A DNA stretch of 64,000 nt, taken from a virus. The notes under the pieces are model-generated. The model ran no database searches. It saw nothing but the letters and a program-made list of their open reading frames with translations, and had not been told where the DNA came from. The stretch lies in the IMG/VR virus record IMGVR_UViG_3300020036_001014, positions 2,266-66,265 of that record; one strand, given 5' to 3'. The position numbers and the translations under genes are program-made. Shown here in pieces: positions 11,377 through 60,039 of the stretch (its first letter is position 1; the number at the start of each line of letters is the position of its first letter).

Positions 11377-11384
11377 TATCTTTG
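11377..11384 (+). promoter_or_regulatory. TATCTTTG promoter element (near-leaderless)
   Basis: Exact octamer ending 6 nt before the ATG at 11391. Confidence 0.45.
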
Positions 11385-11390
11385 TGGCTG

Positions 11391-12905: not shown

Positions 12906-13235
12906 ATGAATCAAGGAGAATTTGAAGGACGCAAACGGAAGCGGAAGATGACCAAGGCCCAGATAGACGCGGAACTTGAAAGGGAGAGATCCAAAATAGC
13001 CAATGGGTCATGGAGCGGAATGGGTGGACTGAGCGAGAGGACTGTTCCTAAGTTTTCGCGACACCCAAGTCCTCTAAAAGACAGAGCTGCTGATGCCATT
13101 GATAAAGTCACTGGTAATTACGACAGCGGACTAAGCGGAGTATTTCACTCACCAAGAACGAAGTACGTAAAGGACGAGAATACTAGGGGGTATGCCGGGT
13201 ACCACAAGCAGAAACACAGGGGTAAATCACGGTAG
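12906..13235 (+). CDS. hypothetical basic protein (109 aa)
   Basis: ATG ORF with a Lys/Arg-rich N-terminus. Confidence 0.4.
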   Translation: MNQGEFEGRKRKRKMTKAQIDAELERERSKIANGSWSGMGGLSERTVPKFSRHPSPLKDRAADAIDKVTGNYDSGLSGVFHSPRTKYVKDENTRGYAGYHKQKHRGKSR

Positions 13236-13236
13236 G

Positions 13237-26700: not shown

Positions 26701-28293
26701 GGAGAGGGTAACCTAGAGCAAGTGGTCGCTGTGATAAGGGATTCCGTTCAGCAGTCGATCAATGCGGGGCTCACCCCGCTCCCAAGCAATGGGGCTGGAG
26801 AGAAGCTGTTCGCAGCGGCCATGTCAGCGGCTTCTATGCGGGCGCTGCTCCGACCCCTTCGCGTAATCCCAGATCTCCTATCTTCCTCAATAGACATGGC
26901 CGGGAGGACAGGGTCCTTGTCGATATACCCCAAGGCGGTCACTCAGCTCAATGGTCTAAAGGATGACGTGAAGAGGTTGATGGATGACACCAACAGCAAT
27001 CATGCGGACAGGCTATCCATCTCTAGGCACATAGAAATAGGCCGTGACGAGATAGTTGAGCAGGGCAAGCTCGCGAAGGCAAGGGAATACATGTCATCCC
27101 TAGCTGAGAAGATCATGGCCGCTCCTGTATGGATGACAATGTTCGAGTCATCGTTCATGGACGCCGCTGGACAGAAGTTCGACATGGAGAAGTACAAGTC
27201 CAGCGCCATCTACCGAGCAACTAACAAGGAAGCCGTAAATATAGCTGCTGCTCAGGCAGACTTCGTGTGGTCGAGGTACACTGGCACAGGGACGATCGTT
27301 GGACAGAAGAGAAAGAACAACGCCCTATTCGCTGATGTTGACTCAAAGACAAAAACAGGAAGATCGTTGGCGTGGATGACCGGCTATTCCGAGCGTCAAA
27401 GACAAGCCCTTATTGACTCGTTCCGATTCGCAAGAGAAACCATATCGTCTGGATCTGGGGCCGGGAAACTAAAGGGATCCGGAACCTTCTTGGCGACAGC
27501 GACAGGAACACTGATCAGCGGCCTTGCCTACGCTATGGGTATGCAGATGGCGCATCTAGCTTGGATGGCGGCTGCCGGTGACGACGAGGAGAAGAAGAAG
27601 GCCGCTGAGAATATGGAGAAGATGAAGAGCCCGGAGTACGCAGGAGGAGAGGCGCTGGCTTCGATGGCTTCTTTGGCTGGTACGAAATACGGGTCTGTTG
27701 GTAGGTACTCCATAAGAGTGATGGGGTCCCTGTATTACGCGTGGCTTGACTCACAAGAGACCCCGACTGATCCAGAAGCCAAGCGAGAGTTCAATAGCAG
27801 AAAGGCTTGGGCTAAGGAGATGGTAAGAAACTTTACCTACTCCGCACCCATTGAGACATCTGGCAAAGGGGGGTCCGGTAAGGCGGTAGTTCACTCAATG
27901 GCAGACGCCATCCCCGTTGTCGGATCGCTGTCAGCTCTGATAGAGCAGGAGCTGGAAGCGGTTAAGTCCTCCAAGAAGCTTGGAAAGGAGGCCGAAAGCG
28001 TAGAGGAGGTGGCCATCTTGGCTGGTCAGATGTCCCTCGCCCTGTTCAACACCGTAGCATTCCTGTATGGGATCCAGTTCTCGTCTGCTGCGCTGGATAA
28101 GAAGGCTGCCGGGATCATGAAGGATCAAGAGCTAGGCAAAGCACCGACAACGGCAGCTGGATTTAAGGCCAGAGCCATGAGCCGGTTCGACAGAATGGCT
28201 GAAGATGACGCACAAATGGAGTCGGACAGGGCCTTTGAGGACAAAGGATTGATCGACAAACTGCTCCAAGGTGATCCAAATGATGAGGAATAA
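20788..28293 (+). CDS. giant virion protein (2501 aa) with zincin-like HEXXH motif and hydrophobic segments
   Basis: Uninterrupted 7.5-kb ORF. HEIGH with a Glu about 21 residues downstream (gluzincin-like pattern) near residue 1050. Several predicted TM-like stretches around residues 330-420 and near the C-terminus. Long Ala/Glu/Lys-rich coiled-coil-type regions. Resembles tape-measure or ejected cargo proteins. Confidence 0.55.
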   Translation: MTDPQNPPAQDIEIEAPDGAIIAFPSTMSEQDIGAAMSKLYPSKPQQPPAKQQPVTPQATAAPVSQATELDPFGDVIAKPSLVAKQEPMVPTTKMTEGMPFVSQRQNLMELERKEELSAEMARQNMFANSHFAGMNEEQLNKAKQGIEAEKMAFDKIGQSIVQRTGSLKESAAALEATRKQLEQQIQENPALQPELSAQYDAAVEAHNKEARTVQALIPIAEDYASKLGLDEMAATMQDYEIKKGQGSWGGAIANKFTGSVGQMMAAGADLTMSLANSLDAVTGFTGMTDAQRGILKEELIGKDASGIRDIPTDLMRIESTTKEYIQEKEKGLLGGAVLGLAGSALLMMTPAMSGIFLQSYDGMKQEMSGDEWAGVPESEKAALAAAGGTIAASLERLGFSNLAKSTPVARTILASAMPKMLPSMSAGQINRLLSAETDSWIRNAIVKTGSGFLAEAETGAAQELADIGMKEMYNEAKGRDLFQTPESFVDAFGQVVRSGIQEGIGGSIMSAPFAYSAARKAGAVGKQQTERQYKFMEKLFTDPDYVDTFKAASEALVKAGEVTQAEVDRAVDDLQVASKLMQKMPEDMPADKRRQAFDLLLEKERLSKKEKAMVEGKVQDIDNELRKLAGIETKTPTTDKTSTNTATIKQDDGSVSKDGGHRFIVDGRISLPVKGDGSQDAIRETTAWADEVTSLNDGTIILTDPDNGPVQKLVVGRGDETSFWLEDAKTGEVMWKSGDNIGLLKSRVGNGDILSTPTAATANPAAKPTEEELNTDTKGDAERDELIRMRNDRGVFFDPMDDLPDQVVRTMNRVDNGVPTDPVSLNEASNWLYGKRKQIASMATDPNRMMTRNQIDGLLAEIDDAISTIETYKYEQREKGSTDASENYTGEKGEHQAAAIDSANAVRTPNEGTARINPEGDLTDDQLNALAEDPSLAATKAATSGGVDVNDSAAINELATRLQGLNKAGADYAAIIGKVAKAATTLRSIAPGVNIQVHETADTIPVGDASSGNRGVLTITGRDANGNVEGTIHINLDQATENTIAHEIGHVALRQAFGADPKLFTQFKERVKKAVKPSDFKAVEAMMGKDYSSAEAPEEFLADLTQMVSDRIDSGDPLTAKEVTVIDKVVAIINDFLKALGIDPILVDPRDARATLEFFRDLGAAANAGVAVNTELAEGVGGTGTVYSKADSNVVRLLKGSEFLNAAPAQRKQMLIDARAQDASERAAQEAKVVAQAKAAGAKEERVRSKEDLSNMKEQYKTFIDSYDAATKKSMAELEEEFIARNAKDVDLARAAIDNLKAQLQESKEDLKRVAKDGFNLGRGIGSVEGEVRGIGEGLKQAAAAQKKIREDVAAYLSLIKQKGDISVAQSKALINAAMRIKIGDPASFTKFENYVDKVMDDAAYAARIEQVRDLQAKATKRKHSLMSGIVKEFTSIDPENIPSSLMADYVSALKNLAKKVPSYSDMKGLVIQISNARPIPTAGKFDSATSFSELNQAITSIASNQLNSVEDFMSMLRDMRSVAKRASELNSLDPSDPNYLSDTQYNGLVDGLALTSRKLSDEYIKEVEPLKKALIGNIRSITVPYSSTSSADADPSENLLQDAATLSDKQLMSLDPIQLQDLSELMAQAVADRYVDVSRLFPIVTAAKVYSDAENMANNLRKVKMDQVKLGELLARTDVSFWSSVSGMGARVANVFDRGIVAPWIKADAGRIRLMRDTGSKVVDLKEKYKLGPKLTDSIKANAMRKQVPNYVMDKIGAVVRYLEEYELGTRVDRSDEFGQYGTRDMFEPSTLEKLDKGGAMHTAGADQTKKHWEKAWLSFPKTNGKVDPKDVYESVTKNDGRYLSKEEGAFFNELMEWKAKNITPKQRYANAIRGIPFNELQFHMPRVKIGPASTSDAEALATPVTNKNLGLRSGTGYSRSENQPLGLFETNIESLIHNNAESTGRDFYFNSALKEVSLALKEAGKNVAGEGNLEQVVAVIRDSVQQSINAGLTPLPSNGAGEKLFAAAMSAASMRALLRPLRVIPDLLSSSIDMAGRTGSLSIYPKAVTQLNGLKDDVKRLMDDTNSNHADRLSISRHIEIGRDEIVEQGKLAKAREYMSSLAEKIMAAPVWMTMFESSFMDAAGQKFDMEKYKSSAIYRATNKEAVNIAAAQADFVWSRYTGTGTIVGQKRKNNALFADVDSKTKTGRSLAWMTGYSERQRQALIDSFRFARETISSGSGAGKLKGSGTFLATATGTLISGLAYAMGMQMAHLAWMAAAGDDEEKKKAAENMEKMKSPEYAGGEALASMASLAGTKYGSVGRYSIRVMGSLYYAWLDSQETPTDPEAKREFNSRKAWAKEMVRNFTYSAPIETSGKGGSGKAVVHSMADAIPVVGSLSALIEQELEAVKSSKKLGKEAESVEEVAILAGQMSLALFNTVAFLYGIQFSSAALDKKAAGIMKDQELGKAPTTAAGFKARAMSRFDRMAEDDAQMESDRAFEDKGLIDKLLQGDPNDEE

Positions 28294-29928: not shown

Positions 29929-31748
29929 TCACCGATCTCAGCATATCTGCGGCAAGAACATTGTTCGCCTGCTGTTCGTTGAATTATCTCAACGAGTACC
30001 GCAAGGCTGCGCGCTATGGCGAAGAGGACATCTGCGACCGGAACCTCTGGATCTACATGCTGTGGGCCAAGGGGATCATGTCCCGTACGCCACTGATGAC
30101 AGAGATCAACGGCAGCATTGTCGTTGCCGATGCTGGGACCACTGCTATCAATGGGACATACTACCCATCCGGGACCAACGCAGAGGGTATTGTATACACG
30201 CTTACCACTGATCCATACACATACATCCATCTGGAGGTCGGTGTGTGGAACCTGATGTACGATGACTCTCCTTACTACTACCAGTCCAGCGTAGGCGTAG
30301 CAGCAACACCAGCAGACGCTACATGGTCTGCCAACTTCGGAGCTAGTCCCGTGCCTACGTTCACTTTGCTTGAAGTAAGCGGTAAATGCGTTAGCCGAGA
30401 GTTCGCAGAGCAGGTATTCGATAAGGCCAAGTGCTATTGCGAGGTATGTGGATGTACCCCTGCGGCAACTCCGACCCCGGTTGACTGCACTATCACCCCT
30501 GATTACACGGTTGATCTGACCATTGACGCCGCCCAATGGGCTGTGACCGAGGCAGACAACCAGGTGGATGGGTTCTCGTACTACATCGTGACGATCGTTG
30601 GCGGTAGCGGAGCCAACCCCGGCCAGATAGGGACCTACTCCACGTTGCTTGGTGGATGGCAGTACAACACCCCCGTTCCGGGCTCCATCATCCTTGACAG
30701 CAACACTGGTATTTACTGGGTTGACTACGTGTACCCAGTTCTTCCTGCGCCCATGTTCCCGCCGATCAACTCCACCAGTGATGGGGCCGGTGAGTATGTC
30801 ATCCAGTCGGCCTTCCCGTGGCAATCAGCTGGTAACTCCAGCAACGTGGTCGTGGAGATGTTCGACGGTGGCCTTGGATGGACCGAGGTATACAGCGGAT
30901 CAGCCGCTTCTCTTGCCACTCCAGTAACGCTGAACCTAGCAGAGCCGGGGTACTTTGAAGTACGGGCCACGTATACAGTCGGTTCGTGTACCTATCAGTA
31001 CTTCACTGGTGTTATCACCAACATCCCCAACCCTCCGGGATCCAGCCGTAGCTGGTTCATGCCAGCAGGCTTCTCTGTTGCAGCAACTCCGGACTTCGTA
31101 GACTGCGTCAACAACCAAGAGAGCACGATATCGTTCCGATTTAAGATCCAAGAGGACACGGATAGCGTGTGGCTTGAATCTGTTAACGGTGGGTGGAGCT
31201 TAAGTATCGGGGCCGGAGGCGGCTTCCCATACGCTGGCGCTGGGCCAACTGTGTTCTGTTACTTGCAGGCTGATATCTACGGGACATTCACCTATGTTGG
31301 TGACGTGGAGATCTCTGTGAATGAATGGCACGTAGTTGAATTTGTCAGGGATGCAACCGTTATTGATGGCTGGGTGCCCGGAACTGACTTCGAGATGTAC
31401 CTTGATGGCGTACTACAAACGATGTCACCAGTTGGGATCATATCCCCACCATCTTACATTGCCGGTGATGTGCCAACGCAGCCACCACTGCCACTACTGT
31501 GGTCTGACAACCTGAGCGGTGCATGGATCGACGAGGTGTATGGATGCCGTACCGCAAGGTCTCAGTCTGATATTACCAACATCATTGAGCCCAACCTGAT
31601 GCAAGGCAGCGATGCTACGTGGGACCGTGCATTCTACTGGAGGATCGAGGATACTGACAACGATCTCTTGGTGGCCAACCAGCCTTCCGGTACACCGTTC
31701 ATTGGAGTTACAACCACACTCTCAACCGACGTTGATCCAAGCATCTAA
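29925..31748 (+). CDS. tail fibre / receptor-binding-like protein (<=607 aa)
   Basis: Track start is TTG; the first ATGs are about 45 codons in (around 30058), so the true start is uncertain. Contains a CYCEVCGC cysteine cluster like its two upstream neighbours. Confidence 0.4.
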   Translation: MITDLSISAARTLFACCSLNYLNEYRKAARYGEEDICDRNLWIYMLWAKGIMSRTPLMTEINGSIVVADAGTTAINGTYYPSGTNAEGIVYTLTTDPYTYIHLEVGVWNLMYDDSPYYYQSSVGVAATPADATWSANFGASPVPTFTLLEVSGKCVSREFAEQVFDKAKCYCEVCGCTPAATPTPVDCTITPDYTVDLTIDAAQWAVTEADNQVDGFSYYIVTIVGGSGANPGQIGTYSTLLGGWQYNTPVPGSIILDSNTGIYWVDYVYPVLPAPMFPPINSTSDGAGEYVIQSAFPWQSAGNSSNVVVEMFDGGLGWTEVYSGSAASLATPVTLNLAEPGYFEVRATYTVGSCTYQYFTGVITNIPNPPGSSRSWFMPAGFSVAATPDFVDCVNNQESTISFRFKIQEDTDSVWLESVNGGWSLSIGAGGGFPYAGAGPTVFCYLQADIYGTFTYVGDVEISVNEWHVVEFVRDATVIDGWVPGTDFEMYLDGVLQTMSPVGIISPPSYIAGDVPTQPPLPLLWSDNLSGAWIDEVYGCRTARSQSDITNIIEPNLMQGSDATWDRAFYWRIEDTDNDLLVANQPSGTPFIGVTTTLSTDVDPSI

Positions 31749-32269
31749 TGCTCGACGCCCTAATAGGATGGCTCAAGGAGATCTGGTCCGGGCTTATGCC
31801 ATGGGCCATCGTCAAGGAGTACTCCAAGGGGGTTAAGCTACGCTTCGGTAGGTTCCAAGGAATACTGGAGCCGGGGTTCCATTGGATAATCCCATTCGTA
31901 GATGACGTTGAGCCCTGTGTTCACGTAACCACGACCATGGACTTGGCACCGCAGTCCGTGCTGACCAAGGATGGGGAGAGCATCGTTATCCGATGCGTGG
32001 TGAAGTACTCGATCACAGACGTAGAGAAGTTCTACCTGCGCGTAACGGACGCAATAGGAGCCCTTAGAGACATCTCAATGGGCTCGGTGTACGATGTGGT
32101 CAAGACAATGGATTGGGAAGAGCTGCGTCAAGCAGACCTGCCTTCCCTGATGACCAAGGAAGTACGCAAGCAGGCGTTCCGTTGGGGGATAGACGTGAGC
32201 ATGGTTACTGTCATTGACCTATCCAAGATGAAGTCTATTCGGTTGATCGGGGGATCGTTACCACTCTGA
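31748..32269 (+). CDS. SPFH/band-7 domain protein (173 aa)
   Basis: Pattern EYSKGVKLRFGRFQGILEPGFHWIIPFVDDV...TKDGESIVIRCVVKYSITD matches the SPFH core (RFG..., PG.H..PF.D.V, TKD...V.VD.V). Last gene of the plus-strand module, overlapping convergently with 32235..32600. Confidence 0.6.
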   Translation: MLDALIGWLKEIWSGLMPWAIVKEYSKGVKLRFGRFQGILEPGFHWIIPFVDDVEPCVHVTTTMDLAPQSVLTKDGESIVIRCVVKYSITDVEKFYLRVTDAIGALRDISMGSVYDVVKTMDWEELRQADLPSLMTKEVRKQAFRWGIDVSMVTVIDLSKMKSIRLIGGSLPL

Positions 32270-39943: not shown

Positions 39944-40609
39944 TTAGGGGCAACTGCTACCATCTGCGGTTGAGAACAAGGACGGTGCGTGAAGAGCCTC
40001 TGACCACTGGCCTGCCATGGCCTTGGCGATGCCGGGGAACGTCTTGTTCCGAATGCGCCTCATGGCCTCTGAACCGTAGGCCAACTTCTTACCATCAGGC
40101 CCAACAGCATCGCCATACCACGCCGGAAGCCTTTTACCTGACGGTGACACGTAGAACTCGCCCTTGCCTACCACCTTGGTGGGCACCAGCAGGGGCAGGC
40201 CCTTCAGCCAGAGGCAGGTGCTCTTGCTGAATGGGTCGCCGAACTGCCAAGGGTGGATGATCTGGTCGGGCTTGCGGTACACGCTGGACATGATGCCGAT
40301 GGGGTTCTCGATTGCCACCCGTGGGCATTGCAGCCGCGTGAACAGTATGAAGAAGTCGATGCCTTCCTGTTGCCGTCCGTCTGCCCGCTTTTGCGCGAAG
40401 TGTTTGGCACCGCTGACCGCAAGGTGCGTGCAGGGAGGGAAGGCGATCACCATATCCCACGTCTGGCCCAGGATGTCGCGCACATCACCCTGGTAATGTG
40501 GTCCCGGCGTATCGGTCGGCAGGATGTCGCAAGAAGTGGCATCATGGCCCAAGGCCAGTAGCTCATCACGCACCGTCCCAGAATGTTCGCAAGCAACGAG
40601 TATTTTCAT
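39944..40609 (-). CDS. compact C5-cytosine DNA methyltransferase-like protein (221 aa)
   Basis: Motif I-like ILVACEHSGTVRDEL; motif IV-like AFPPCTHLAVSGA (PC-dipeptide); motif VI-like VAIENPIG (ENV-like); motif VIII-like GDPFSKS; very short or absent target-recognition domain. Confidence 0.4.
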   Translation of the reverse strand: MKILVACEHSGTVRDELLALGHDATSCDILPTDTPGPHYQGDVRDILGQTWDMVIAFPPCTHLAVSGAKHFAQKRADGRQQEGIDFFILFTRLQCPRVAIENPIGIMSSVYRKPDQIIHPWQFGDPFSKSTCLWLKGLPLLVPTKVVGKGEFYVSPSGKRLPAWYGDAVGPDGKKLAYGSEAMRRIRNKTFPGIAKAMAGQWSEALHAPSLFSTADGSSCP

Positions 40610-47951: not shown

Positions 47952-48311
47952 CTACTTGTTGAAGAGTTTCTTGTACACCTTCTCGACCACGTCCTTGGGT
48001 ACGAACGTGCATCCGAACTGGACACCATCGTTCTTGAACTCAGCCTTGTATTCACCAGCCATTATCAGTTCTTCAACAACGATTAGCTTGGCCAGCTCGG
48101 ACATGAACTCTGGCATGTCGATGGTTTTGAATCCTCCGGGTCCAGCAGTTCCTAGTTTATATTCATACAGGACGGCGTAGCCCCTGAATCCGGACGTCCT
48201 CGAATCGGGCCACAGCTTGACACCAACCCCATCTGCGTATGTCAGTAGCTTATTGTACCGGTCTTCACTCATTGGCGTAACGCACCCGCCTTGGTATTTC
48301 AACTTGCTCAT
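47952..48311 (-). CDS. hypothetical protein (119 aa)
   Basis: ATG ORF. Confidence 0.35.
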   Translation of the reverse strand: MSKLKYQGGCVTPMSEDRYNKLLTYADGVGVKLWPDSRTSGFRGYAVLYEYKLGTAGPGGFKTIDMPEFMSELAKLIVVEELIMAGEYKAEFKNDGVQFGCTFVPKDVVEKVYKKLFNK

Positions 48312-48312
48312 C

Positions 48313-48693
48313 TTAATTGTAGTGTTGTTCGTGAATGTCCTTGACCTTTTCCTTCAGTGTTGGTACCTTGAACTGGACGTAGATGTTATCCGGTGACGCA
48401 TCGAAGTAGTGTCGAAGCGCAGGACACAACCACAGATCCATTCCAAGTTGTGGGCAGTGGTAGTACGTGCCCGTGGTTACTTCGCCGCCAGTCCTGCTGA
48501 TGTGCAGGGTGTGCGACGGGAAATCAACAGCAGAGAACGTCAGGTACACCTCGTCGCTGCCTTCGGACAGCAGTTCGATAAGTGTATCCGCCCCTGCCAC
48601 AAAGGGTTCATCAACCAACCCCACGTTGGGATCGGTGAATACCCACATCGGACCCTTGCGTTCCGCCTTGATGGTGAAGATTGAATTGCTCAT
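48313..48693 (-). CDS. hypothetical protein (~126 aa)
   Basis: Track ORF extends to 48759, overlapping the upstream gene; internal ATG (MSNSIF...) gives an ATGA overlap at 48690-48693. Confidence 0.35.
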   Translation of the reverse strand: MSNSIFTIKAERKGPMWVFTDPNVGLVDEPFVAGADTLIELLSEGSDEVYLTFSAVDFPSHTLHISRTGGEVTTGTYYHCPQLGMDLWLCPALRHYFDASPDNIYVQFKVPTLKEKVKDIHEQHYN

Positions 48694-49052
48694 GGTAGTT
48701 GTGCGAATAGGACTTGAAGTGTTTCGACAGGCAGCTTGTTCAGCTTCTCTAGCGAGCACAATGGATACACCTCGGTCAAGTAGCTCCTTCTCGTGGCCTC
48801 GATGAAGGCATCATTGAACGCATCCTCGTGACAGAAGTGATAGTCTTGCGACTTACCCTTCACTACGCTCACCTTGCCTTGGTGGTAGTTGGTGACATAG
48901 GCGGAGAACTGTCCTCCGATATGCCTCAATGCGTCCTGCTGTGACGCCCATGTTCCAACGTACTCAACGCTACCTGCGCCAAGGTGCATGAACACATGCG
49001 TCGTCTTGTTTCTTTTATTAGTCCTACTTGCGGGAACTATCTTGATATCCAT
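48690..49052 (-). CDS. hypothetical protein (120 aa)
   Basis: ATG ORF; GTTAAC-type motif 3 nt upstream. Confidence 0.4.
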   Translation of the reverse strand: MDIKIVPASRTNKRNKTTHVFMHLGAGSVEYVGTWASQQDALRHIGGQFSAYVTNYHQGKVSVVKGKSQDYHFCHEDAFNDAFIEATRRSYLTEVYPLCSLEKLNKLPVETLQVLFAQLP

Positions 49053-49054
49053 GG

Positions 49055-49073
49055 CTTAACTGTTTATGGTTAG
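49055..49073 (-). promoter_or_regulatory. GTTAAC-type motif (CTTAACTGTTTATGGTTAG)
   Basis: 2-3 nt upstream of the ATG of 48690..49052. Confidence 0.4.
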
Positions 49074-49978
49074 TCGATCAGCTTCTCGCCGATCTTCTTG
49101 ACCAGTTCATTTGGAAGTTCGTACTCACCGATGGTGATGCTGTCCTTGTTGAACTGGACGTTGCCTTGCTTGGTTGTGATAACCTCACCACTGCACCGCT
49201 CAAGCCACTGGTCAATGGTAAGTTCGTTGCGATCATTTGTATTGTCGTTACCAACGAACGCTGGGTGATGCTTCCTGTACACAAAGACAGGGAAGTTGAC
49301 AGTAGATGTGGGGTCATAAGGCTTCACTCCAGAGCGAGCAGTGGTTTCACACGCCACCCATTCACGAAGCGCCTTATCCTTGATGGCTACACAGTCGCCG
49401 TCTTGCAGGCTGTGCTTCTTTGTCCCACCCATGCCAGCAATGATCTTCTTGACCGTTGCGTTATCAACAGTAGTGCAACCAATGGTCACGGAACCGGGCT
49501 TGATCTCAACGGTCCAGTCCTTGTACTTCAGTGGTTCTTCTGTCTTGACCAACAGGCGTTCGATGAACTCACCCAGTGAGAGGTAGTTCAGCGGATCTCC
49601 TGAATTGTCGGCTAAGATCTGGGAACTCCATCCATTCAGACCAGACTTATCCATGAAGATCACCACCTCGCTACCAAGTGACCACACGGGCTTTTTCCCA
49701 ACAGCCACAGCTGCATCGTACACGATCTTACCCGTAATGGCATCGACCTTCACTGCGTCGTATGGCTGAAGTCCTGCTGTTGCTAGCTCCACATCTTCAA
49801 AGAGGAAGCTGTAATACCCAATGCAGACCCACATGTCGGTAACACGTCCTACCGTGTGGTCTTTCCCAACCATGAGCCCCATTGGACCGTCCCATCCGGG
49901 ATTGCCGCCCGAGTTGTATTTCTCCTTAGTAGCAGTGGCCTTGATGCGTACGCGGTCTCCCTTCTTGAACGTTGTCAT
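49070..49978 (-). CDS. hypothetical protein (302 aa), paralogous C-terminal motif with next gene
   Basis: Contains SVTIGCTTVDNATVKKIIAG and SITIGEYELPNELVKKIGEKL, related to HVSIGCFTLKNEEVLAIEAA in 49975..50700. Confidence 0.4.
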   Translation of the reverse strand: MTTFKKGDRVRIKATATKEKYNSGGNPGWDGPMGLMVGKDHTVGRVTDMWVCIGYYSFLFEDVELATAGLQPYDAVKVDAITGKIVYDAAVAVGKKPVWSLGSEVVIFMDKSGLNGWSSQILADNSGDPLNYLSLGEFIERLLVKTEEPLKYKDWTVEIKPGSVTIGCTTVDNATVKKIIAGMGGTKKHSLQDGDCVAIKDKALREWVACETTARSGVKPYDPTSTVNFPVFVYRKHHPAFVGNDNTNDRNELTIDQWLERCSGEVITTKQGNVQFNKDSITIGEYELPNELVKKIGEKLID

Positions 49979-50700
49979 TGTTGTTTGGTTTTGATGAGTT
50001 CAACTACCTTCTTAATGTCTTCGTACTTAACAGTGTGTCCTTCTGCGAACGTTGCTACACCAGTTGTATCGTTCCACTTAACAGGAACACCCTTCACCTT
50101 AAGGTTCATCGCAGCCTCAATGGCAAGAACCTCTTCGTTCTTCAGCGTGAAGCAGCCGATGCTTACATGTCCATCCTCCATCTTCACCTCGTAACTATTG
50201 ATAGTTAGTGGCTTAGTGATAACGGTGCGCTCCATCAGTTCCATGAACTGGTTGAATGGCATGAAGTTCTTAGACTCTTGACTCCACGCTGACCCCTTCA
50301 CGCCAGATGTTGTTACGCCATCACGGTATACGCTCGTGCCACCGAAGAACAGCCAACCGCCATCGTCATGCTTGTGCGGACTGTCAACACCCAGCTCCTT
50401 CGCCCGAGCCAGTGCATAATACCTCTGCGCAGGAGTGAAGTCCTTACACGCATCACCATGCTTCAAGCCAGCCTGCGGTGCTGGGGTGATGACGGTAGCC
50501 CACACATCGTTCAGGTACAGCCTTACTTGATCGCTGCCGTCACTAACATAAAGACCTTCTGCGCTATTTGTTGACCATCTTGCACCGTGCGGAATAGTAT
50601 ATTCCATGTCAGGCTTGCCGTCGTACTCAATGGACCGCACCGTAGCCCCGGCTACAATACCACGGGCAGTTGCTTCCTTGATCAGTTGTTCGAGTGTCAT
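49975..50700 (-). CDS. hypothetical protein (241 aa)
   Basis: ATG ORF; shares a (V/S)xIGCxT...N..V..I motif with 49070..49978. Confidence 0.4.
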   Translation of the reverse strand: MTLEQLIKEATARGIVAGATVRSIEYDGKPDMEYTIPHGARWSTNSAEGLYVSDGSDQVRLYLNDVWATVITPAPQAGLKHGDACKDFTPAQRYYALARAKELGVDSPHKHDDGGWLFFGGTSVYRDGVTTSGVKGSAWSQESKNFMPFNQFMELMERTVITKPLTINSYEVKMEDGHVSIGCFTLKNEEVLAIEAAMNLKVKGVPVKWNDTTGVATFAEGHTVKYEDIKKVVELIKTKQQ

Positions 50701-50957: not shown

Positions 50958-51956
50958 TTATTCTACCAGTTGTTTATGGTTCGTCCACTCAAACGTGTTG
51001 ATGTCAGAGGTGAAGTGTCCACACCCCTCGCAGTACAGGTATCCTTGGTCCGAAGCTACTTCATGTGACTCACACCTTGGGCATACCATGTCATCCATGT
51101 CCACTGGATCCTCACCCCAGCTCTCGCCGTAACAGTAGGAGTAGTTGCCGTGGTCCTTGTCTTCTCCTGCGAAGTAGATCCACGCAGTTACTTCTTCTCC
51201 ATCAGACAGTGTTACTTGCGTCTCACGGCGTTGGTACAAGGTCGGGTGTCCTTCCAGCTTATCCAGCTCCAGCAGGGTATCGGTTGACACACGATACACC
51301 TCTACCTCTACCTGTGAACCACCACCGCCTTCGATCAGGAACGGTAGACCATGTACGCACAGTCTGTGCTTCTCATTGGTCCACCCCCAGCCCATGAAGT
51401 CAGCCTTGTCGAGCATCCAGTTGTTACCGTGGCCTGTTTTCAGTGTACCATACACGGCCACCATCTTACCAGTTGGGATACAGTAAGCGTTGGAATACCA
51501 CGCTCCTTCATGCTCAACCCACCCCTCACCAGTACGGATGATGCTCTTGCGCTTGGCATTGACAAGAACATACCGCTGTGCGAACCGTGACAGAACCGCC
51601 TCACGAGATTCATGGTTGACGCTACGTAGCATATCAGCCAAGTGTTGGGTATCAGTACGGTCGTCGTCGATAAACCCCTCTACCGTACCGTTCTGGAACA
51701 AGTAGAACCCGTTGTCCACCGGGAATGGGTGGCAGTTCTGCAATGTCTTGCCACCTACCGTGGCCCACCTGAAGTGGTGTATCGCTGGACCGGGCTCAAG
51801 TGCTAGCTTGATAGCCTTCTCCATATCCAGTGTCTTCTCAACCTTGCCTGTTCGTAGGCAAAGTCTACCGTATCCGTCCGAGTTAATGAGCGCAGCTCGC
51901 TTAACTATGTCCGAGTTAAGCACGGACCCGCTGCTGTTGTCAATGAGTAGGCACAT
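50958..51956 (-). CDS. fused class-II glutamine amidotransferase (Ntn) + gamma-glutamyl cyclotransferase-like protein
   Basis: Start set at the internal Met (MCLLIDNSSG) so that Cys2 is N-terminal, since the track ORF overlaps the upstream gene. IHHFRWATVGGKTLQNCHPF matches the GATase-II signature (H.RWAT.G...N.HPF). C-terminal half MVAVYGTLKTGHGNN...VEVEVYRV...GHPTLYQR matches the AIG2/GGCT fold pattern. Terminal CPRC...CEGCGH zinc ribbon. Confidence 0.55.
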   Translation of the reverse strand: MCLLIDNSSGSVLNSDIVKRAALINSDGYGRLCLRTGKVEKTLDMEKAIKLALEPGPAIHHFRWATVGGKTLQNCHPFPVDNGFYLFQNGTVEGFIDDDRTDTQHLADMLRSVNHESREAVLSRFAQRYVLVNAKRKSIIRTGEGWVEHEGAWYSNAYCIPTGKMVAVYGTLKTGHGNNWMLDKADFMGWGWTNEKHRLCVHGLPFLIEGGGGSQVEVEVYRVSTDTLLELDKLEGHPTLYQRRETQVTLSDGEEVTAWIYFAGEDKDHGNYSYCYGESWGEDPVDMDDMVCPRCESHEVASDQGYLYCEGCGHFTSDINTFEWTNHKQLVE

Positions 51957-53931
51957 CTGTTGTTTGTTGTTGTTGTTGTTCGTAAGTACTGATCTCTTCT
52001 GGTGTGGCTGGTCGCAGGTCAATAATGTCCTCACCGGACATATCTGTTCCGTTGCCACGCAGCCACGTTACTCCAATGGCTCCAGTTCGTATCACACCCC
52101 TTGAATCTGCTCGGCACAGGTGTCCATGTGCAGGACCCCGGCCATTGTACATCAGAACCTGACCCACGGTGAATGGATTACCATCGTTACGTGTTGCTCG
52201 CTCGATCTCCTGCGGTGTTGCTCTGCGGGCAGACGACCGTTGGTATACACCGCCACACGGCGCTATGGATATCGTACCGTCACTGAACGTTCTCTCCACA
52301 AGCTGGGTTGTTCCGATAAACTGCGAGTCGCACCCTGTGTTATCGCCAGTGATCACGATCCAGTCACCCGTTCTGAGTATGTCTGCGGCAGCGATCTCTT
52401 CTGGAGTAGCACGGCGTGCTGATTCAGCTGGGTAGAACCAACCATGACCAATATGTGCCCAGTCCGTGCTATGACTTCCAGACCAGTCGATACCGAGCAA
52501 TTGATCTACCACGATGCAGCGACCCAGTTCACCTGTCCAACCCATTCTATCTGGTCCGGTTACTACAACCCAGTCTCCAATAGCCGGTAGATACCCGGTC
52601 TCTACTGGCTCTGGTTGTGCTGGAATAGCGGCCAGCTCTTCTTCCGTTGGAAGGCGTAGTCTGTTGGCATATACCCATGCGTCTGTCCTGTAATCCATCC
52701 GATGCACATTTATTTCCGCTCCGGTGCCATTTGCTGCGTTGACCGTAACCAATGATATGGGATCGTTCGCATACCCGTCAATCCACATCAGCACCTGTCC
52801 AGTGGTCCAGCTTGGGGGTGGCGGTGGAGGTGGGACGTAGTTCCGAATGAACTCACTGATCCCGTCGTGTTTGACACCACGGTAATACCACCCGGCGAAC
52901 GCACTGTACAGGCGGATGACCTCCTGGACTTTCTTGATCCCAGCCTTCGGATCTTCGGGGTTGGTGTAAACATCCAGCAGCATCTTCCGCACATCACCGT
53001 CACGACCCAGCTGCTTGCGCATCCATGTCCATGTCAAGGGCTTTTCTTTAGCCGCAAGCAGGAAGTGTGCTATCAGGTCGAACCTCCACATCAGGGACTT
53101 GGCCGTCTTGACCGCACTGGGAACTCGAAGCTCGATCCGGTGTGGCTCAAAGAAGAATGCTTGGTACTTCTCTTGTCTACCCTTCTCCTTGTCGGTCATG
53201 GCCTTGCAATACCCACCCGTCAAGCGTTTGGGATACAGAGCAAGCAGTAAGGGGAACAGCGGGCGGATCCGTTCGGATAGCTCGATAGGGGTAAACCGTC
53301 TGTCACTGATGGAGATATGGCCACCGCAACTGGTTGAGCAGTCGGCGTCGAGAACCTTGGTCAGCTTACGTACATGCTGAACCAGAAGCTCACGCTCGTT
53401 GATGTTGAAGGCTGGGGATACAAGCTCGAAACCCGTATCATCATCCAGCGAACCGTCACGTTCACATACCCATCCAGAGGGAAGTTCAAGCCCATCCTCG
53501 ATCAGATCACGGATACTGCGATCCTCTTTCTCCACCTCGAACCCGATGCGATACGGGTGTTCGTTGGTAACTGCATGAAGGTCACGCTCTTGGCTGTGGT
53601 AGTCGTTCAGGCCCCCTTCCTCTGGCTCGGAGTTGTACGTCTCGCTGCGTTCGTGGTAGTGGGCGTGGTCGTCACGGCACGACTCGCACCACCACTCATC
53701 AACATCTTCGATGTGGGTGAGGTTGAAGCCTGCGTTGTCATCGTGGCAAATGTCTTCGTTACAGCTACCGCACGAAGAGACTTCGTTCTGGTGGCAGATG
53801 CCGTCTATCATTGTACGGGTGGCCTCGTCTTCTGGTATCCAAGCCTCGCTTTGTTCCGAGTACAGATACCCATCAAGCTCTGGTGCAGATCGAGAACTGC
53901 ACCGTATTTCTATGGTGTGTGAATGCGGCAT
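51940..53931 (-). CDS. amidoligase-like (glutamine-synthetase-fold) protein with C-terminal repeat domain
   Basis: 663 aa; N-terminal Cys/His cluster; RIGFEVEKE...DGSLDDDTGFELVSPAF...GGHISIS resembles Amidoligase_2/GCS2-like ligases as recalled; C-terminal region has ~4 copies of an RRATP(E/Q)EI...TGDW(I/V)V(I/V)TG repeat and a PPPPPPP tract. Confidence 0.4.
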   Translation of the reverse strand: MPHSHTIEIRCSSRSAPELDGYLYSEQSEAWIPEDEATRTMIDGICHQNEVSSCGSCNEDICHDDNAGFNLTHIEDVDEWWCESCRDDHAHYHERSETYNSEPEEGGLNDYHSQERDLHAVTNEHPYRIGFEVEKEDRSIRDLIEDGLELPSGWVCERDGSLDDDTGFELVSPAFNINERELLVQHVRKLTKVLDADCSTSCGGHISISDRRFTPIELSERIRPLFPLLLALYPKRLTGGYCKAMTDKEKGRQEKYQAFFFEPHRIELRVPSAVKTAKSLMWRFDLIAHFLLAAKEKPLTWTWMRKQLGRDGDVRKMLLDVYTNPEDPKAGIKKVQEVIRLYSAFAGWYYRGVKHDGISEFIRNYVPPPPPPPSWTTGQVLMWIDGYANDPISLVTVNAANGTGAEINVHRMDYRTDAWVYANRLRLPTEEELAAIPAQPEPVETGYLPAIGDWVVVTGPDRMGWTGELGRCIVVDQLLGIDWSGSHSTDWAHIGHGWFYPAESARRATPEEIAAADILRTGDWIVITGDNTGCDSQFIGTTQLVERTFSDGTISIAPCGGVYQRSSARRATPQEIERATRNDGNPFTVGQVLMYNGRGPAHGHLCRADSRGVIRTGAIGVTWLRGNGTDMSGEDIIDLRPATPEEISTYEQQQQQTTDVPTH

Positions 53932-55341: not shown

Positions 55342-55980
55342 TCATTTGATCGGATACTTGGAGTTCAGCGTATCTGCGATTCGCTTGCCGTATTTGCGGC
55401 TGATGTACTTGGCTTGGTAAGCCCACGCAGCAGCCCCCGCAGCATCCCCCGCAGCAGCCCGCGCAGCATCCCCCGCAGCAGCCCCCGCAGCATCCCACGC
55501 AGCAGCCCCCGCAGCAGCCCCCGCAGCATCCCCCGCAGCAGCCCCCGCAGCATACCCCGCAGCAGCCCCCGCAGCAGCCCACGCAGCAGCCCCCGCAGCA
55601 TCCCCCGCAGCATACCCCGCAGCATCCCCCGCAGCATACCCCGCAGCAGCCCACGCAGCAGCCCGCGCAGCAGCAAGCTCGCTGGCGCTCGCCCGGCCAT
55701 TTGCATAACGCTCTGCGACTCGAACAGCTTCTCTGCTCCGCTCATCGGTCAACAGGTCCCATACCCTACGACCATCAGCAAGCGGGGTCTTGCGAACGAA
55801 ACGACAGGCAAGAAGCCGAAGCTCCTTGTTATCCAGTAGCTTCAATTTCTCGATCAGCCACATAGACCACTCAGGATCCTTGTTCATGCTTATCACTTTC
55901 TCCCACGTTGGGGCTTCTTTCATGGCTTCGACGGCTGGTCCGCAGGCGCCAATGCGCCGGAGGTGTTGGTATGGTTTCAT
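55342..55980 (-). CDS. protein with ~19 tandem AAGx tetrapeptide repeats (212 aa)
   Basis: N-terminal ~110-aa globular-looking region, then AWAAAGYAAGDAAGYAAGDAAGAAAW... encoded by the 12-bp tandem array; all other frames are open only because of the repeat. Confidence 0.5.
   Translation of the reverse strand: MKPYQHLRRIGACGPAVEAMKEAPTWEKVISMNKDPEWSMWLIEKLKLLDNKELRLLACRFVRKTPLADGRRVWDLLTDERSREAVRVAERYANGRASASELAAARAAAWAAAGYAAGDAAGYAAGDAAGAAAWAAAGAAAGYAAGAAAGDAAGAAAGAAAWDAAGAAAGDAARAAAGDAAGAAAWAYQAKYISRKYGKRIADTLNSKYPIK
55423..55674. repeat. tandem array of ~21 x 12-bp units (CCCCCGCAGCAG / CCCCCGCAGCAT)
   Basis: Read directly: 252 bp of near-perfect 12-mers with occasional A/C substitutions. 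Confidence 0.9.
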
Positions 55981-56343: not shown

Positions 56344-56346
56344 TTG

Positions 56347-56420
56347 TCACCCCGCCACGACTCGAACGTGGACTTTACCGGGTAGAGGCCGGTCGTGTTA
56401 TCCAATTACACTACGGGGCG
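56347..56420 (-). tRNA. tRNA-Arg(UCU)-like
   Basis: Minus-strand cloverleaf: acceptor CGCCCCG/CGGGGTG (one G-U), D arm GTGT-AATTGGATA-ACAC, anticodon arm ACCGG-CCUCUAC-CCGGT (anticodon UCU; C at position 33 is atypical), T arm CCACG-TTCGAGT-CGTGG. GTTAAC-type motifs on both flanks. Confidence 0.6.
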
Positions 56421-59797: not shown

Positions 59798-59872
59798 TCT
59801 CATGTAGCTCAAATTGGGAAGAGCGATCCCCGGCGCTGGGGATAGGTGCAGGTTCGATGCCTGTCATGAGAG
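59798..59872 (+). tRNA. tRNA-like element with non-canonical anticodon arm (possible pseudo-tRNA)
   Basis: Perfect 7-bp acceptor stem TCTCATG/CATGAGA, D arm GCTC-AAATTGGGAA-GAGC, T arm GCAGG-TTCGATG-CCTGT. The anticodon arm is ATCCCC-GGCGCT-GGGGAT (6-bp stem with 6-nt loop, or 5-bp with 8-nt loop) and lacks U33. Confidence 0.4.
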
Positions 59873-59960
59873 CAAGTGATCGCAGGACCCAAGGGTCGCT
59901 ACCTTGGATTCAGATTTTTCAATAGCTGGAGTTAATCGCCCAGCCTTGCGGTCACTATAC

Positions 59961-60035
59961 ATGCGGGTAGCTCAGTCTGGTCAGAGCAGCGGTCTCCAAC
60001 ACTGAAGGTCGGTGGTTCGAATCCATCCCCGTGTG
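59961..60035 (+). tRNA. tRNA-Trp(CCA)
   Basis: Acceptor ATGCGGG/CCCGTGT (two G-U pairs), U8-A9, D arm GCTC-AGTCTGGTCA-GAGC, anticodon arm GCGGT-CUCCAAC-ACTGA (anticodon CCA; 27-43 G-A mismatch), variable loop AGGTC, T arm GGTGG-TTCGAAT-CCATC. Confidence 0.6.
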
Positions 60036-60039
60036 CGAG

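Follow-up and report, generated by a model that had tools for sequence, protein, structure and literature searches.

Two overlapping genes in a leftward operon

The window that we analyzed, a 64,000-nucleotide stretch of viral DNA, carries two adjacent minus-strand genes. Gene 1 (51940..53931, minus strand, ORF starting at an ATG; homologs P0001–P0060; AF2 model m9ad42d0986cc) encodes a 663-aa putative amidoligase, and gene 2 (50958..51956, minus strand; homologs P0061–P0092; AF2 model mef8fb3dac82f) a 332-aa protein that fuses a class II glutamine amidotransferase (GATase-II), a gamma-glutamylamine cyclotransferase (GGACT), and a zinc ribbon. As the first-pass annotation had described, the two ORFs are contiguous and overlap. 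The stop region of gene 1 and the ATG of gene 2 share 17 nt (51940..51956, minus strand), which suggests translational coupling. Metagenome homologs of the two proteins reach E = 0 and E = 1e-231, and both can therefore be considered real genes rather than chance ORFs.

The start of gene 2 at 51956 is an ATG giving Met-Cys. A longer ORF, starting at a GTG and reaching 52058, was rejected because all full-length homologs start with Met-Cys and Ntn enzymes require a cysteine as first residue. This start is present in 49 of the 62 distinct partner genes of related loci, the remainder being over-extended ORF calls. The pair is part of a long operon that is read leftward and is located upstream of the replication genes; no terminator was found between genes 1 and 2. 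This organization is consistent with early or middle cytoplasmic expression.

Domain organization of the two proteins

The catalytic core of the gene 1 protein (residues ~108–352; 52876..53610, minus strand) is predicted to be a glutamine synthetase (GS)-fold carboxylate–amine ligase, a divergent member of Amidoligase_2 (PF12224). This assignment, already proposed in the first-pass annotation, is supported indirectly. The protein itself scores 16.8–18.3 bits against PF12224, under the cutoff of 22, and 9 of 26 diverse cores of the family match this profile (best 1.5e-9). According to Foldseek, the gene 1 model resembles GmaS (9qur, 2.6e-6), GS (5dm3), Dop (9cku), and PafA (4bjr) in the PDB, with probabilities of 0.85–1.00. 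The closest solved folds are those of GmaS and 1-naphthylamine GS, two gamma-glutamyl-amine synthetases for small amines. In BFVD, dozens of phage "amidoligase" models match gene 1, down to 1.2e-18, including those of phages tf and CW02. The core thus shares its catalytic fold with PafA/Dop, PuuA/PuuD, and GmaS-type synthetases but differs from them in its small size of ~240 aa; at the sequence level, the family profile matches no solved structure. Invariant residues in the homolog alignment are Y111, G130, E132, E134, K135, E157, D159, S161, G167, E169, C202, G203, G204, H205, R236, E267, R269, and R283. The previously noted motifs IGFEVEKE, GFELVSP, and (C)GGHI hold the invariant columns G130 E132 E134 K135, G167 E169, and C202 G203 G204 H205, respectively. 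The conserved order ExE...ExD...E...H...R...ExR...R would correspond to that of the metal- and phosphate-binding residues in GS-type ligases.

The Cys/His cluster noted earlier at the N-terminus of the gene 1 protein belongs to a beta-rich, zinc-ribbon-like region (residues ~20–100; 53632..53874, minus strand) modeled as short beta-hairpins with a pLDDT of 84–94. Its C54-x2-C57, C62-H63, and C82-x2-C85 residues are kept in the closest relatives (P0002–P0008), and it has a weak match to zf-piccolo (E = 0.058). Downstream of the core, a poly-Pro linker (VPPPPPPPS) precedes the repeat domain previously recognized by its RRATP(E/Q)EI motif. Repeat alignment resolves this domain into four SH3/Tudor-like units of ~65 aa (residues 373–437, 447–516, 517–582, and 583–655; 51967..52815, minus strand), each closing with R[RLP][AP]T[PE][EQ]E[IL]. 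With jackhmmer, repeats 2 and 3 find each other, and no other match to the repeats was obtained in the window and the fetched loci. Fold searches gave weak matches to tandem SH3-like, Agenet, and YorP domains. Among the aligned homologs, this ~310-aa C-terminal extension is confined to P0002–P0005. More generally, the terminal extensions of the ligases vary greatly across the family: the N-terminal part ranges from 122 to 392 aa, and some ligases contain little outside the core (292–321 aa in loci L011, L044, and L066).

The AF2 model of the gene 2 protein has a mean pLDDT of 89.3. Residues 1–160 (51477..51956, minus strand) form a compact Ntn GATase-II domain with Cys2 as nucleophile. C2 is nearly invariant in the family and T66 nearly so, and H61, R63, G68, P77, N89, G90, and D102 are invariant, four of these (H61, R63, G68, and P77) lying within HHFRWATVG...NCHPF. 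The family profile matches GFAT1 (6zmk, 2.5e-6), a class II GAT (3mdn, 1.9e-5), and PurF (2e-4), and Foldseek identifies the glutaminase domain of GlmS (1xff/3ooj, ~1e-6); the Pfam GATase_6 score is 18.4 bits, under the threshold of 27. Like the class II GATases GlmS/GFAT and PurF and the stand-alone EgtC/YafJ-like proteins (3mdn, 1te5), the domain has an N-terminal cysteine nucleophile and a gamma-glutamyl pocket with conserved R63, N89-G90, and D102, the counterparts of the residues with which GlmS-type enzymes hold a free gamma-glutamyl head group. In contrast to these enzymes, it is far smaller (~160 aa), has no fused synthase, and is always encoded beside a GS-fold ligase.

The following GGACT/AIG2 domain (residues ~163–282; 51111..51470, minus strand) is matched by PF06094 (83.2 bits, E = 2.7e-23) and phrog_2520 (1e-24), and its profile matches mouse GGACT (1vkb, 3.8e-23). 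Superposition on 1vkb by Foldseek gives a target-normalized TM-score of 0.72 and an rmsd of 2.1 Å, with 32% identity. The domain has the fold of characterized mouse and human GGACT (A2LD1; 1vkb, 3jub; TM-score 0.72, ~31% identity) and conserves both the YGTL motif (168–172), part of the invariant GGCT motif VYGTLK, and the catalytic Glu, E235, which aligns with the Glu of the GGACT "FE(D/S)CP" segment. Unlike GGACT, it is flanked by an Ntn amidotransferase domain on one side and a zinc ribbon on the other. This C-terminal Cys4 ribbon (C292xxC295...C309xxC312; 51006..51089, minus strand) has a sub-threshold match to Zn_Ribbon_TF (E = 9e-4). Its CxxC...CxxC columns are conserved in the family alignment; among the partner proteins, 36 of the 52 unfused ones and 4 of the 10 fused ones carry a comparable ribbon. 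All three parts of gene 2 therefore agree with the earlier description of a Met-Cys Ntn domain with an H.RWAT.G...N.HPF signature, an AIG2/GGCT-like domain, and a terminal zinc ribbon.

A widespread two-gene module in phages

A GATase-II gene follows on the strand of the amidoligase gene in every one of the 69 IMG/VR viral contigs that extend at least 1 kb downstream of the latter; these contigs form 51 clusters at 90% identity and 28 at 50%. The median distance between the two genes is 27 nt, and it does not exceed 51 nt in 58 of the 69 loci. The pair was also found in a 165-kb relative. We found no conserved third gene family beside it across the loci, and no protein in which an amidoligase is fused to a GATase. 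In nine loci, which belong to 8 of the 51 clusters defined at 90% identity, two amidoligase paralogs flank a single GATase gene. The amidoligase family is nearly missing from cellular reference genomes and its distribution is phage-restricted. The conserved functional unit is therefore amidoligase plus GATase-II, a two-gene module widespread in phages, and GGCT is accessory to it. The amidoligase/GATase-II/GGCT triad put forward in the first-pass annotation stands for its first two members and not for GGCT as a fixed one. Likewise, the fusion of two activities, although present here, is not special to the window, as 7 of the 69 loci (about 10%) encode a GATase–GGCT fusion.

A phage cassette combining Amidoligase_2 (PF12224), GATase-II, and GGCT was described by Iyer et al. 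(2009, Mol Biosyst), and is annotated in LUZ24-like phages, phiEco32, PaP3, tf, CW02, PSA-HP1, the OM43 phage MEP401, and mycobacteriophage Marvin. The larger cassettes of LUZ24-, phiEco32-, and CW02-like phages are labeled "peptidoglycan modification cassette." In the phage literature its function is a prediction, and we found there no biochemical study of the amidoligase/GATase-II module, in agreement with the earlier remark that the system is phage-associated, computationally described, and biochemically uncharacterized. The pair already exists in GenBank phages: C75C1, MW202828, Marvin (gp105/106), and MEP401 (gp05/06).

The window pair is a variant of this recognized module. It combines the same enzyme families at an early, replication-proximal genome position, and the ligase model superposes on the amidoligase models of tf and CW02. 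As in UFV-P2/LUZ24-like phages, MEP401, and Marvin, the amidoligase gene is upstream of the GATase gene, with the difference that an HNH gene lies between them in UFV-P2/LUZ24-like phages. Compared with the larger cassettes, the window form is minimal, as ATP-grasp and COOH-NH2 ligase (PF14395) genes were not found among the window ORFs scanned, and its GGCT and GATase form one polypeptide, whereas GGCT has a gene of its own in those cassettes. It further differs from the known cassette by the zinc-ribbon N-terminus and the four SH3-like repeats of its ligase, found in its closest relatives only, and by a sequence too divergent for detection by tblastn against 50,697 phage records and under the Pfam threshold. 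C75C1 (OQ984151) and Podoviridae sp. ctfjg026 (MW202828) likewise encode an amidoligase followed by a fused GATase-II–GGCT, the fusions being 35% identical to that of the window over 88% and 79% of the query, respectively. Both are annotated just as "gamma-glutamyl cyclotransferase," and the MW202828 ligase as "hypothetical." In the repeat search neither ligase matched the SH3-like repeats; that of C75C1 is ~310 aa long, and four small ORFs separate it from the fusion gene.

Candidate functions of the module

Our preferred reading, a tentative one, is that the module makes and processes gamma-glutamyl amide bonds on a putative target early in infection. All three catalytic domains could act on this one bond type (gamma-Glu-NH-R). 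The ligase would use ATP to phosphorylate a carboxylate, most likely that at the gamma position of glutamate, and couple it to an amine of the target; the Ntn domain would hydrolyze the gamma-amide to free glutamate; and the GGACT domain would cyclize the gamma-glutamyl amide to 5-oxoproline, releasing the amine. We infer the glutamate or gamma-glutamyl specificity, the direction of each step, the formation of any complex, and the target. The same logic, an ATP-dependent gamma-glutamyl amide ligase co-encoded with a cleaver of that bond, is that of PafA/Dop, a GS-fold ligase/amidase pair, and of PuuA/PuuD; in PuuA/PuuD and AtdA1/AtdA2, a gamma-glutamylating ligase of the GS type is encoded together with a gamma-glutamyl hydrolase. 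EgtC, a stand-alone class II GATase, takes off a gamma-glutamyl group, and the GGCT-fold BtrG strips a gamma-glutamyl protecting group. Here, the cleaving partner has Ntn and GGCT folds, whereas known pairs use a GS fold or a class I GATase, and, unlike in pupylation, no Pup-like tag gene was identified. Against this scheme, it would seem futile to pair a ligase with two enzymes that undo its product, unless the successive steps take place in a set order on different intermediates. In addition, ~90% of the modules have no GGCT, so the core function cannot depend on gamma-glutamyl cyclization.

A heteromeric glutamine-dependent amidotransferase would show the same tight linkage of ligase and GATase genes. 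Such a two-component enzyme is accordingly the main rival, unlikely but to be taken seriously: the GATase-II would hydrolyze glutamine and hand the ammonia to the GS-fold ligase, which would spend ATP on turning a carboxylate into a carboxamide, the carboxylate being carried by a protein, peptide, metabolite, or nucleic-acid substituent. GGCT would then be a lineage-specific add-on. The obligate pairing in 69 of 69 loci, with overlapping or near-abutting genes, points to co-translation in stoichiometric amounts and to a complex. Every glutamine-binding and oxyanion residue of the genuine class II amidotransferases is conserved, ammonia is natural to GS-fold enzymes (GS and GmaS are the top fold matches), the nine loci with one GATase between two amidoligases look as if a donor were shared by two synthetases, and the majority of modules function without GGCT. 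However, ammonia-channeling class II GATases are normally fused to their synthase, and no such fusion occurs among the loci. Stand-alone class II GATases that have been characterized, EgtC among them, act as gamma-glutamyl amidohydrolases. Nor does this explanation give a role to the GGACT domain, which requires a gamma-glutamyl amide with a free alpha-amine, or to the separate GGCT genes of LUZ24- and CW02-type cassettes.

One other reading keeps the gamma-glutamyl chemistry and changes its target. An auxiliary metabolic module rewiring host gamma-glutamyl or amine pools (polyamines, glutathione-like thiols, or other amines) rather than marking a macromolecule would fit the small-amine substrates of the nearest solved folds, the short ligases with little besides a core, and the fact that free gamma-glutamylamines are GGACT substrates. 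We nevertheless find it rather improbable, since the variable ligase extensions, SH3-like repeats, and partner zinc ribbons resemble targeting or docking modules, and the near absence of the family from cellular reference genomes argues against a borrowed host metabolic gene. Still more doubtful is peptidoglycan modification or superinfection exclusion by remodeling the gamma-linked D-Glu in the stem peptides of the cell wall or in precursors of these. Peptidoglycan can be a ligand of SH3-type domains, and the literature gives this role to the amidoligase/GATase/GGCT/ATP-grasp/COOH-NH2-ligase cassette of LUZ24-, phiEco32-, CW02-, and PSA-HP1-type podoviruses. This published role is a prediction, though, the last two enzymes were missing from the window scan, and inspection of both proteins revealed no obvious signal peptide or membrane segment. 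Moreover, the D-Glu alpha-amine is acylated by L-Ala in stem peptides, and a free alpha-amine is required both for GGCT cyclization and by the Ntn pocket (D102); intact stem peptides should therefore be poor substrates. Decoration of a modified base in phage DNA by the ligase and amidotransferase seems very unlikely. Some viral contigs do encode amidoligase and glutaminotransferase Pfam domains beside 5-HMUDK and aGPT-Pplase (PMC8989533), and nucleic-acid binding would be a conceivable role for zinc ribbons and SH3/Tudor-like repeats. The gene at 39944–40609, cited earlier as a hint of genome hypermodification, does encode a small C5-MTase-like DNA methyltransferase (phrog_757, 8e-64); however, it lies among the replication genes, 11 kb from the pair, which itself is among early genes. 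The hint is unsupported, because Pfam and PHROG searches of nearly all window ORFs of at least 150 aa found no dUMP/dCMP hydroxymethylase, thymidylate-synthase-like enzyme, aGPT-Pplase, nucleotide or 5-hmdU kinase, TET/JBP, PLP, or radical-SAM enzyme, nor the two ligases mentioned above. None of these genes is conserved beside the pair in 80 viral loci.

Returning to the gamma-glutamyl amide scheme, the lineage-specific zinc ribbon and four SH3-like repeats of the ligase suggest a macromolecular or polymeric target. The gene 2 protein is the obligate partner of this ligase, with a GGACT domain acquired in this phage lineage. Together, the two proteins may add, trim, or recycle a gamma-glutamyl mark early in infection; alternatively, the gamma-glutamyl moiety may serve as a transient protecting or activating group.

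The overlapping gene pair and its domains

The module is made up of two minus-strand genes that share a 17-nt overlap. Gene 1 (53931 to 51940) codes for a 663-aa protein, and gene 2 (from the ATG at 51956 to 50958) for one of 332 aa with a Met-Cys start (MCLLID). A longer GTG start of gene 2, at 52058, was rejected as an ORF-calling artefact, as full-length homologues begin with MC. This start is found in 49 of the 62 distinct gene 2-type partner genes of related loci and is nearly invariant in the gene 2 family alignment (A2). With best E values among metagenomic homologues of 0 for gene 1 and 1e-231 for gene 2, both are regarded as genuine genes on sequence comparison. No terminator was detected between them, and the promoter and terminator scan otherwise yielded nothing decisive. 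The ATG of gene 2 lacks an upstream Shine-Dalgarno-like sequence in the inspected interval 51957-51976 (minus strand). The sequence before it is a CA-rich tract (acaacaacaacaaacaacag), in which the QQQQQ tail of gene 1 is encoded as well. For gene 1, the sole Shine-Dalgarno-like candidate is a GAGG lying as far as 17 nt upstream. Gene 2 may rely on translational coupling to gene 1.

The two ORFs and the domains assigned to them by the first-pass annotation are correct according to ORF coordinates and profile, fold, and motif evidence. The expected amidoligase and class-II glutamine amidotransferase (GATase-II) folds were both recovered, but the direct Pfam scores are under the cutoffs. For gene 1, PF12224 (Amidoligase_2) scores 16.8 bits over the full protein and 18.3 bits over the core (cutoff 22), and phrog_2443 "amidoligase" matches weakly (E = 0.005). 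PF12224 is matched independently by 6 of 37 homologues and by 9 of 26 diverse family cores (best 1.5e-9), and three homologues with precomputed PF12224 hits are linked to the gene 1 query at about 1e-29 to 1e-31. Since the direct score is below the cutoff and the relatives match, membership in Amidoligase_2 rests on transitive homology. An AlphaFold (AF2) model built from 37 sequences is confident in the core (pLDDT of about 81-97 for residues 125-350). In Foldseek searches against the PDB, it retrieved the gamma-glutamylmethylamide synthetase GmaS, glutamine synthetases (GS), Dop, and PafA with probabilities of 0.85-1.00. Its fold matches in BFVD include dozens of phage proteins named amidoligase (>20), with E values down to 1e-18, among them I2FLP2 of Pseudomonas phage tf and H9D1D3 of Salinivibrio phage CW02 (probability 1.00) and a protein of the Marvin-cluster phage Tesla. 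The core is thus modeled with the GS-like catalytic fold common to recognized phage amidoligases, and gene 1 is placed in the amidoligase family by the PF12224 matches of its relatives together with the PDB and BFVD fold matches.

This core is compact, about 240 aa, and the family invariants are Y111, G130, E132, E134, K135, E157, D159, S161, G167, E169, C202-G-G-H205, R236, E267, R269, and R283. From motif order, we infer that the succession ExE...E...H...R...ExR corresponds to the residues that bind metal and phosphate in GS-type enzymes. The gene 1 product is a predicted ATP-dependent amide-bond ligase. To our knowledge, no member of this family appears to have been characterized for ATP-dependent amide-bond formation, and the family profiles A1 and A3 gave no meaningful match to a solved structure among all PDB sequences. 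On the N-terminal side, residues 20-100 form a confidently modeled beta-rich Cys/His module whose C54xxC57, C62-H63, and C82xxC85 are kept in the nearest relatives. A poly-proline linker lies C-terminal to the core and is followed by four repeats; these, of about 65 aa (residues 373-437, 447-516, 517-582, and 583-655), each end with an RRATPEEI-type motif. These repeats weakly resemble SH3/Tudor/Agenet-like domains in fold searches and are confined to the closest clade of homologues (P0002-P0005); no other occurrence was found in neighboring ORFs, the window, or any of the fetched loci.

The GGACT/AIG2 domain of gene 2, which the first-pass annotation had also read there, is unambiguous. PF06094 scores 83.2 bits (cutoff 22.8), the family profile retrieves mouse GGACT (1vkb, 3.8e-23), and the model (mean pLDDT 89) superimposes on 1vkb with a target-normalized TM-score of 0.72 and an rmsd of 2.1 Å. 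The motif V168-Y-G-T-L172 and E235 are conserved, the latter aligning with the Glu of the "FE(D/S)CP" segment of GGACT. In residues 1-160, Cys2 and T66 are nearly invariant and H61, R63, G68, P77, N89-G90, and D102 are invariant in A2. Pfam GATase_6 scores 18.4 bits against a threshold of 27. The family profile reaches GFAT1 (2.5e-6), the stand-alone class-II GATase 3mdn (1.9e-5), and PurF (2e-4), and Foldseek matches the model to the GlmS glutaminase domain (about 1e-6, probability 1.00). By profile and model, the N-terminal 160 residues are a small Ntn class-II glutamine amidotransferase with an N-terminal-nucleophile Cys. From the aligned motifs, we take R63, N89-G90, D102, and T66 to be equivalent to GlmS R73, N98-G99, D123, and T76. 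Gene 2 carries no fused synthase, and the one candidate acceptor for ammonia is the neighboring amidoligase, adjacent in 69 of 69 loci. The protein ends in a Cys4 zinc ribbon, which is present in 36 of 52 unfused and 4 of 10 fused homologues.

An obligate pair in phage genomes

We scanned IMG/VR with the family alignment, found relatives in 284 viral contigs, fetched 80 loci, and ran HMMs of the three catalytic domains on all their ORFs. All 69 loci in which 1 kb or more of sequence follows the amidoligase gene have a GATase-II gene downstream of it on the same strand, with a median gap of 27 nt (51 nt or less in 58 of the 69). The association survives dereplication into 51 clusters at 90% identity and 28 clusters at 50% identity. 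The first-pass annotation had pointed to a computationally described triad with GGCT, two of whose three activities are fused here. The conserved unit proves to be the pair: GATase-II is alone in 53 loci, followed by a second amidoligase paralogue in 9, and fused to GGCT, as in the window, in 7, and the HMM search of all flanking ORFs revealed no separate GGCT gene. The fusion is not unique to the window: it also occurs in phage C75C1, and the nearest relatives of the window ligase (43-60% identity) have the fused partner directly downstream. Clustering of the flanking ORFs recovered the ligase in 85 loci and the GATase in 77, the next commonest family being found in 21; the two are the only conserved members of the neighborhood. 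The analysis shows three catalytically intact-looking domains; two of them, the ligase and the Ntn enzyme, make up a phage-specific pair that is obligate and tightly coupled.

The nine loci with the order amidoligase-GATase-amidoligase are L003/L004, L029, L039, L047, L064, L070, L073, and L087. Their second paralogue is larger, about 500-580 aa, which suggests two ligation steps with one common partner.

An exhaustive profile search returned 2,224 cluster representatives (50% identity) at E ≤ 1e-3, 617 of them at E ≤ 1e-30. We also searched 185,579 reference bacterial and archaeal genomes for one exact motif, GFEVEKED, as a degenerate DNA pattern. Of the 30 loci returned, a single one, on a Neisseria MAG contig (L118), was real and the others were chance matches. 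By this limited single-motif test, the family appears to be essentially phage-restricted. Among 50,697 phage records, neither megablast with the locus nor tblastn with the complete 663-aa protein gave a match, and known phages were reached solely through the gene 1 core at relaxed E values and through the partner protein. In C75C1, the pair is annotated as an "amidoligase enzyme" and, for the fusion, only as a "gamma-glutamyl cyclotransferase." The pair is also carried by Podoviridae sp. ctfjg026 (MW202828), mycobacteriophage Marvin (gp105/gp106), and OM43 phage MEP401 (gp05/gp06), and relatives of this subfamily are found in cultured phages of Pseudomonas, Escherichia, Mycobacterium, and the Vibrio group and in cultured marine phages.

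The phage amidoligase system was reportedly predicted computationally by Iyer and colleagues in 2009. The first-pass annotation was right to tie the pair to a predicted system of this kind. In the literature on PF12224, or on amidoligases in connection with anti-defense or phage-related topics, we found no biochemical characterization. Phage genome papers call the cassette "peptidoglycan modification/superinfection exclusion" or an auxiliary metabolic gene set (PMC5498523, PMC11945000, PMC10580990, PMC3890496). All cite the computational study (Iyer et al. 2009), and several state that the function of the cassette remains to be explored. The form found in the window is an architectural variant of this known, widespread phage module, namely a minimal two-gene form marked by the GATase-GGCT-zinc-ribbon fusion and by a ligase with SH3-like repeats.

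Genomic setting of the pair

The window covers the greater part of a divergent tailed-phage genome; a cluster member of the window protein lies on a contig of 67.8 kb. The structural genes are on the plus strand between 1 and 32 kb and include a portal gene, a crAss "muzzle"-like protein (13192-17781; PF25731, 9.6e-9), and a 2,501-aa ORF (20788-28293). This block ends with an SPFH/Band_7 protein (31748-32269, plus strand) that is also found in a 165-kb relative (L001). A minus-strand operon extends from about 58 kb to 32 kb, with the pair located upstream of the replication genes. It continues with genes for a DUF932 protein, an AAA ATPase, a DnaA-like HTH protein, a small C5-cytosine-methyltransferase-like protein, DnaB, HNH endonucleases, and a DUF6371 primase-like protein. 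No DNA polymerase was recognized anywhere in the window.

Just downstream of the pair, on the minus strand, lie paralogous ORFs (49070-49978 and 49975-50700, and also 47952-48311) that have no family match. They share a small domain "...V(S/T)IGC(F/T)T(L/V).N..V..." (BLASTP 8e-7 between 49070-49978 and 49975-50700). The neighbors at 49070-50700 were rejected as members of the module because they do not accompany it in relatives. A DUF6717 (PF20475) protein is encoded a few kilobases downstream of the module (48313-48759, minus strand) and likewise in a distantly related 58-kb phage contig (L003/L004; L003 14120-14530). This co-occurrence may reflect a shared backbone or a loose association. 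On the other side of the pair, a 212-aa ORF (55342-55980, minus strand; phrog_18326) contains a tandem repeat at 55420-55674, about 21 copies of 12 nt, that encodes its C-terminal half (AAGYAAGDAAGAAAW...). ORFs in other frames over this repeat (CCGG..., LRGL..., SPRS...) are its shadows. There are three tRNA genes: tRNA-Trp(cca) at 59798-59873 and tRNA-Arg(tct) at 59961-60036, both on the plus strand, and, at 56346-56420 on the minus strand, a tRNA-like sequence to which ARAGORN assigns a four-base anticodon (gcgc). This third sequence may be a tRNA of the frameshift-suppressor type or simply a mis-call.

Possible functions of the two-gene module

GS-fold ligases such as GS, GmaS, and PuuA activate the gamma-carboxyl of glutamate as an acyl phosphate before coupling it to an amine; for PafA, of the same fold, this glutamate is the C-terminal residue of Pup. 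Class-II Ntn amidotransferases hold a free gamma-glutamyl head group and cleave the gamma-amide of glutamine or, in EgtC, of gamma-Glu-X. GGACT converts gamma-glutamyl-amines to 5-oxoproline and the amine. All three catalytic domains of the module would accordingly belong to families with a typical chemistry at the glutamate gamma-carboxyl. Because their chemistries center on this group, we tentatively favor, as quite possible, a module that forms gamma-glutamyl amide bonds on a substrate early in infection and afterwards processes them, in which the variable termini of the ligase would act as targeting modules. The main rival, somewhat unlikely in our estimate, is a two-subunit glutamine-dependent amidoligase with the GATase as ammonia donor. 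It accounts better for the strict pairing and for the amidoligase-GATase-amidoligase triads, but more poorly for the GGCT fusion.

The full "peptidoglycan modification" cassette combines amidoligase, GATase, GGCT, ATP-grasp, and COOH-NH2 ligase genes; those of CW02 and of LUZ24-like phages (UFV-P2) have the last two and a separate GGCT. The window form, in contrast, lacks ATP-grasp (RimK-like) and COOH-NH2 ligase (PF14395) genes among nearly all window ORFs of at least 150 aa, scanned with Pfam or PHROGs (the exceptions, 10118-10888, 11382-12152, 12149-12895, 18288-19031, and 20788-28293, lie in the structural region). In addition, no export signal was seen, and the alpha-amine of D-Glu is blocked in stem peptides, whereas the GGCT and Ntn chemistries require a free one. 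These three points make peptidoglycan modification unlikely for the two-gene form. A thymidine/cytosine hypermodification cluster would be expected to combine the amidoligase and GATase with nearby genes for aGPT-Pplase, a 5-hmdU DNA kinase, and either a dUMP/dCMP hydroxymethylase or TET/JBP. In some viral contigs, amidoligase and glutaminotransferase domains lie, with no assigned function, beside 5-HMUDK/aGPT-Pplase (PMC8989533). Searched for among the same scanned ORFs, dUMP/dCMP hydroxymethylase, thymidylate-synthase-like, TET/JBP, nucleotide or DNA (5-hmdU) kinase, aGPT-Pplase, PLP, and radical-SAM enzymes were all absent, and no hypermodification gene is conserved next to the pair across the 80 viral loci. 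The first-pass annotation took the methyltransferase-like gene at 39944-40609 (minus strand, 221 aa) as a hint of hypermodification, which is not supported: the gene lies among replication genes, 11 kb from the pair, with no partner enzymes among the scanned ORFs. It is the only DNA-modification gene detected in the window and matches phrog_757 "DNA methyltransferase" (8e-64), with no Pfam hit at E ≤ 0.01. Its product is too short for a normal target-recognition domain; FPPC resembles motif IV and IENP motif VI. As precursor-pathway genes are missing from the scanned ORFs, DNA hypermodification is likewise unlikely for this form.

In a more novel reading, the substrate would be a macromolecule. 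The minimal amidoligase-GATase-II pair would then be a phage-specific, never characterized modifying machine that marks its targets early for takeover or counter-defense, an idea we consider doubtful. The ligase would attach a gamma-glutamyl or carboxamide mark to a host or phage protein or nucleic acid, guided by modules that can be exchanged at its N and C termini (in the window, a zinc ribbon and the four SH3/Tudor-like repeats). Supplying ammonia, or editing or erasing the mark, would fall to the Ntn and GGACT domains, and the whole would be a viral counterpart of pupylation/depupylation or of effectors of the glutamylation type. PADLOC defense-system models matched neither protein at E ≤ 0.01.

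The amidoligase/GATase module is among the commoner enzyme pairs of tailed phages lacking an assigned function, and its labels ("peptidoglycan modification," auxiliary metabolic gene) are guesswork annotation. Two tightly coupled genes, an optional fused GGCT, and an essentially phage-restricted distribution make it a compact, testable system, and the same three results speak against labeling the two-gene form as peptidoglycan modification or DNA hypermodification. The pair will not surprise a specialist, yet it offers a clean minimal entry to an enzyme pair long listed as "function unknown." If its target is a metabolite, it would be an auxiliary metabolic function of limited novelty; if its target is a host macromolecule, it would represent a new class of phage-encoded post-translational or post-replicative modification.
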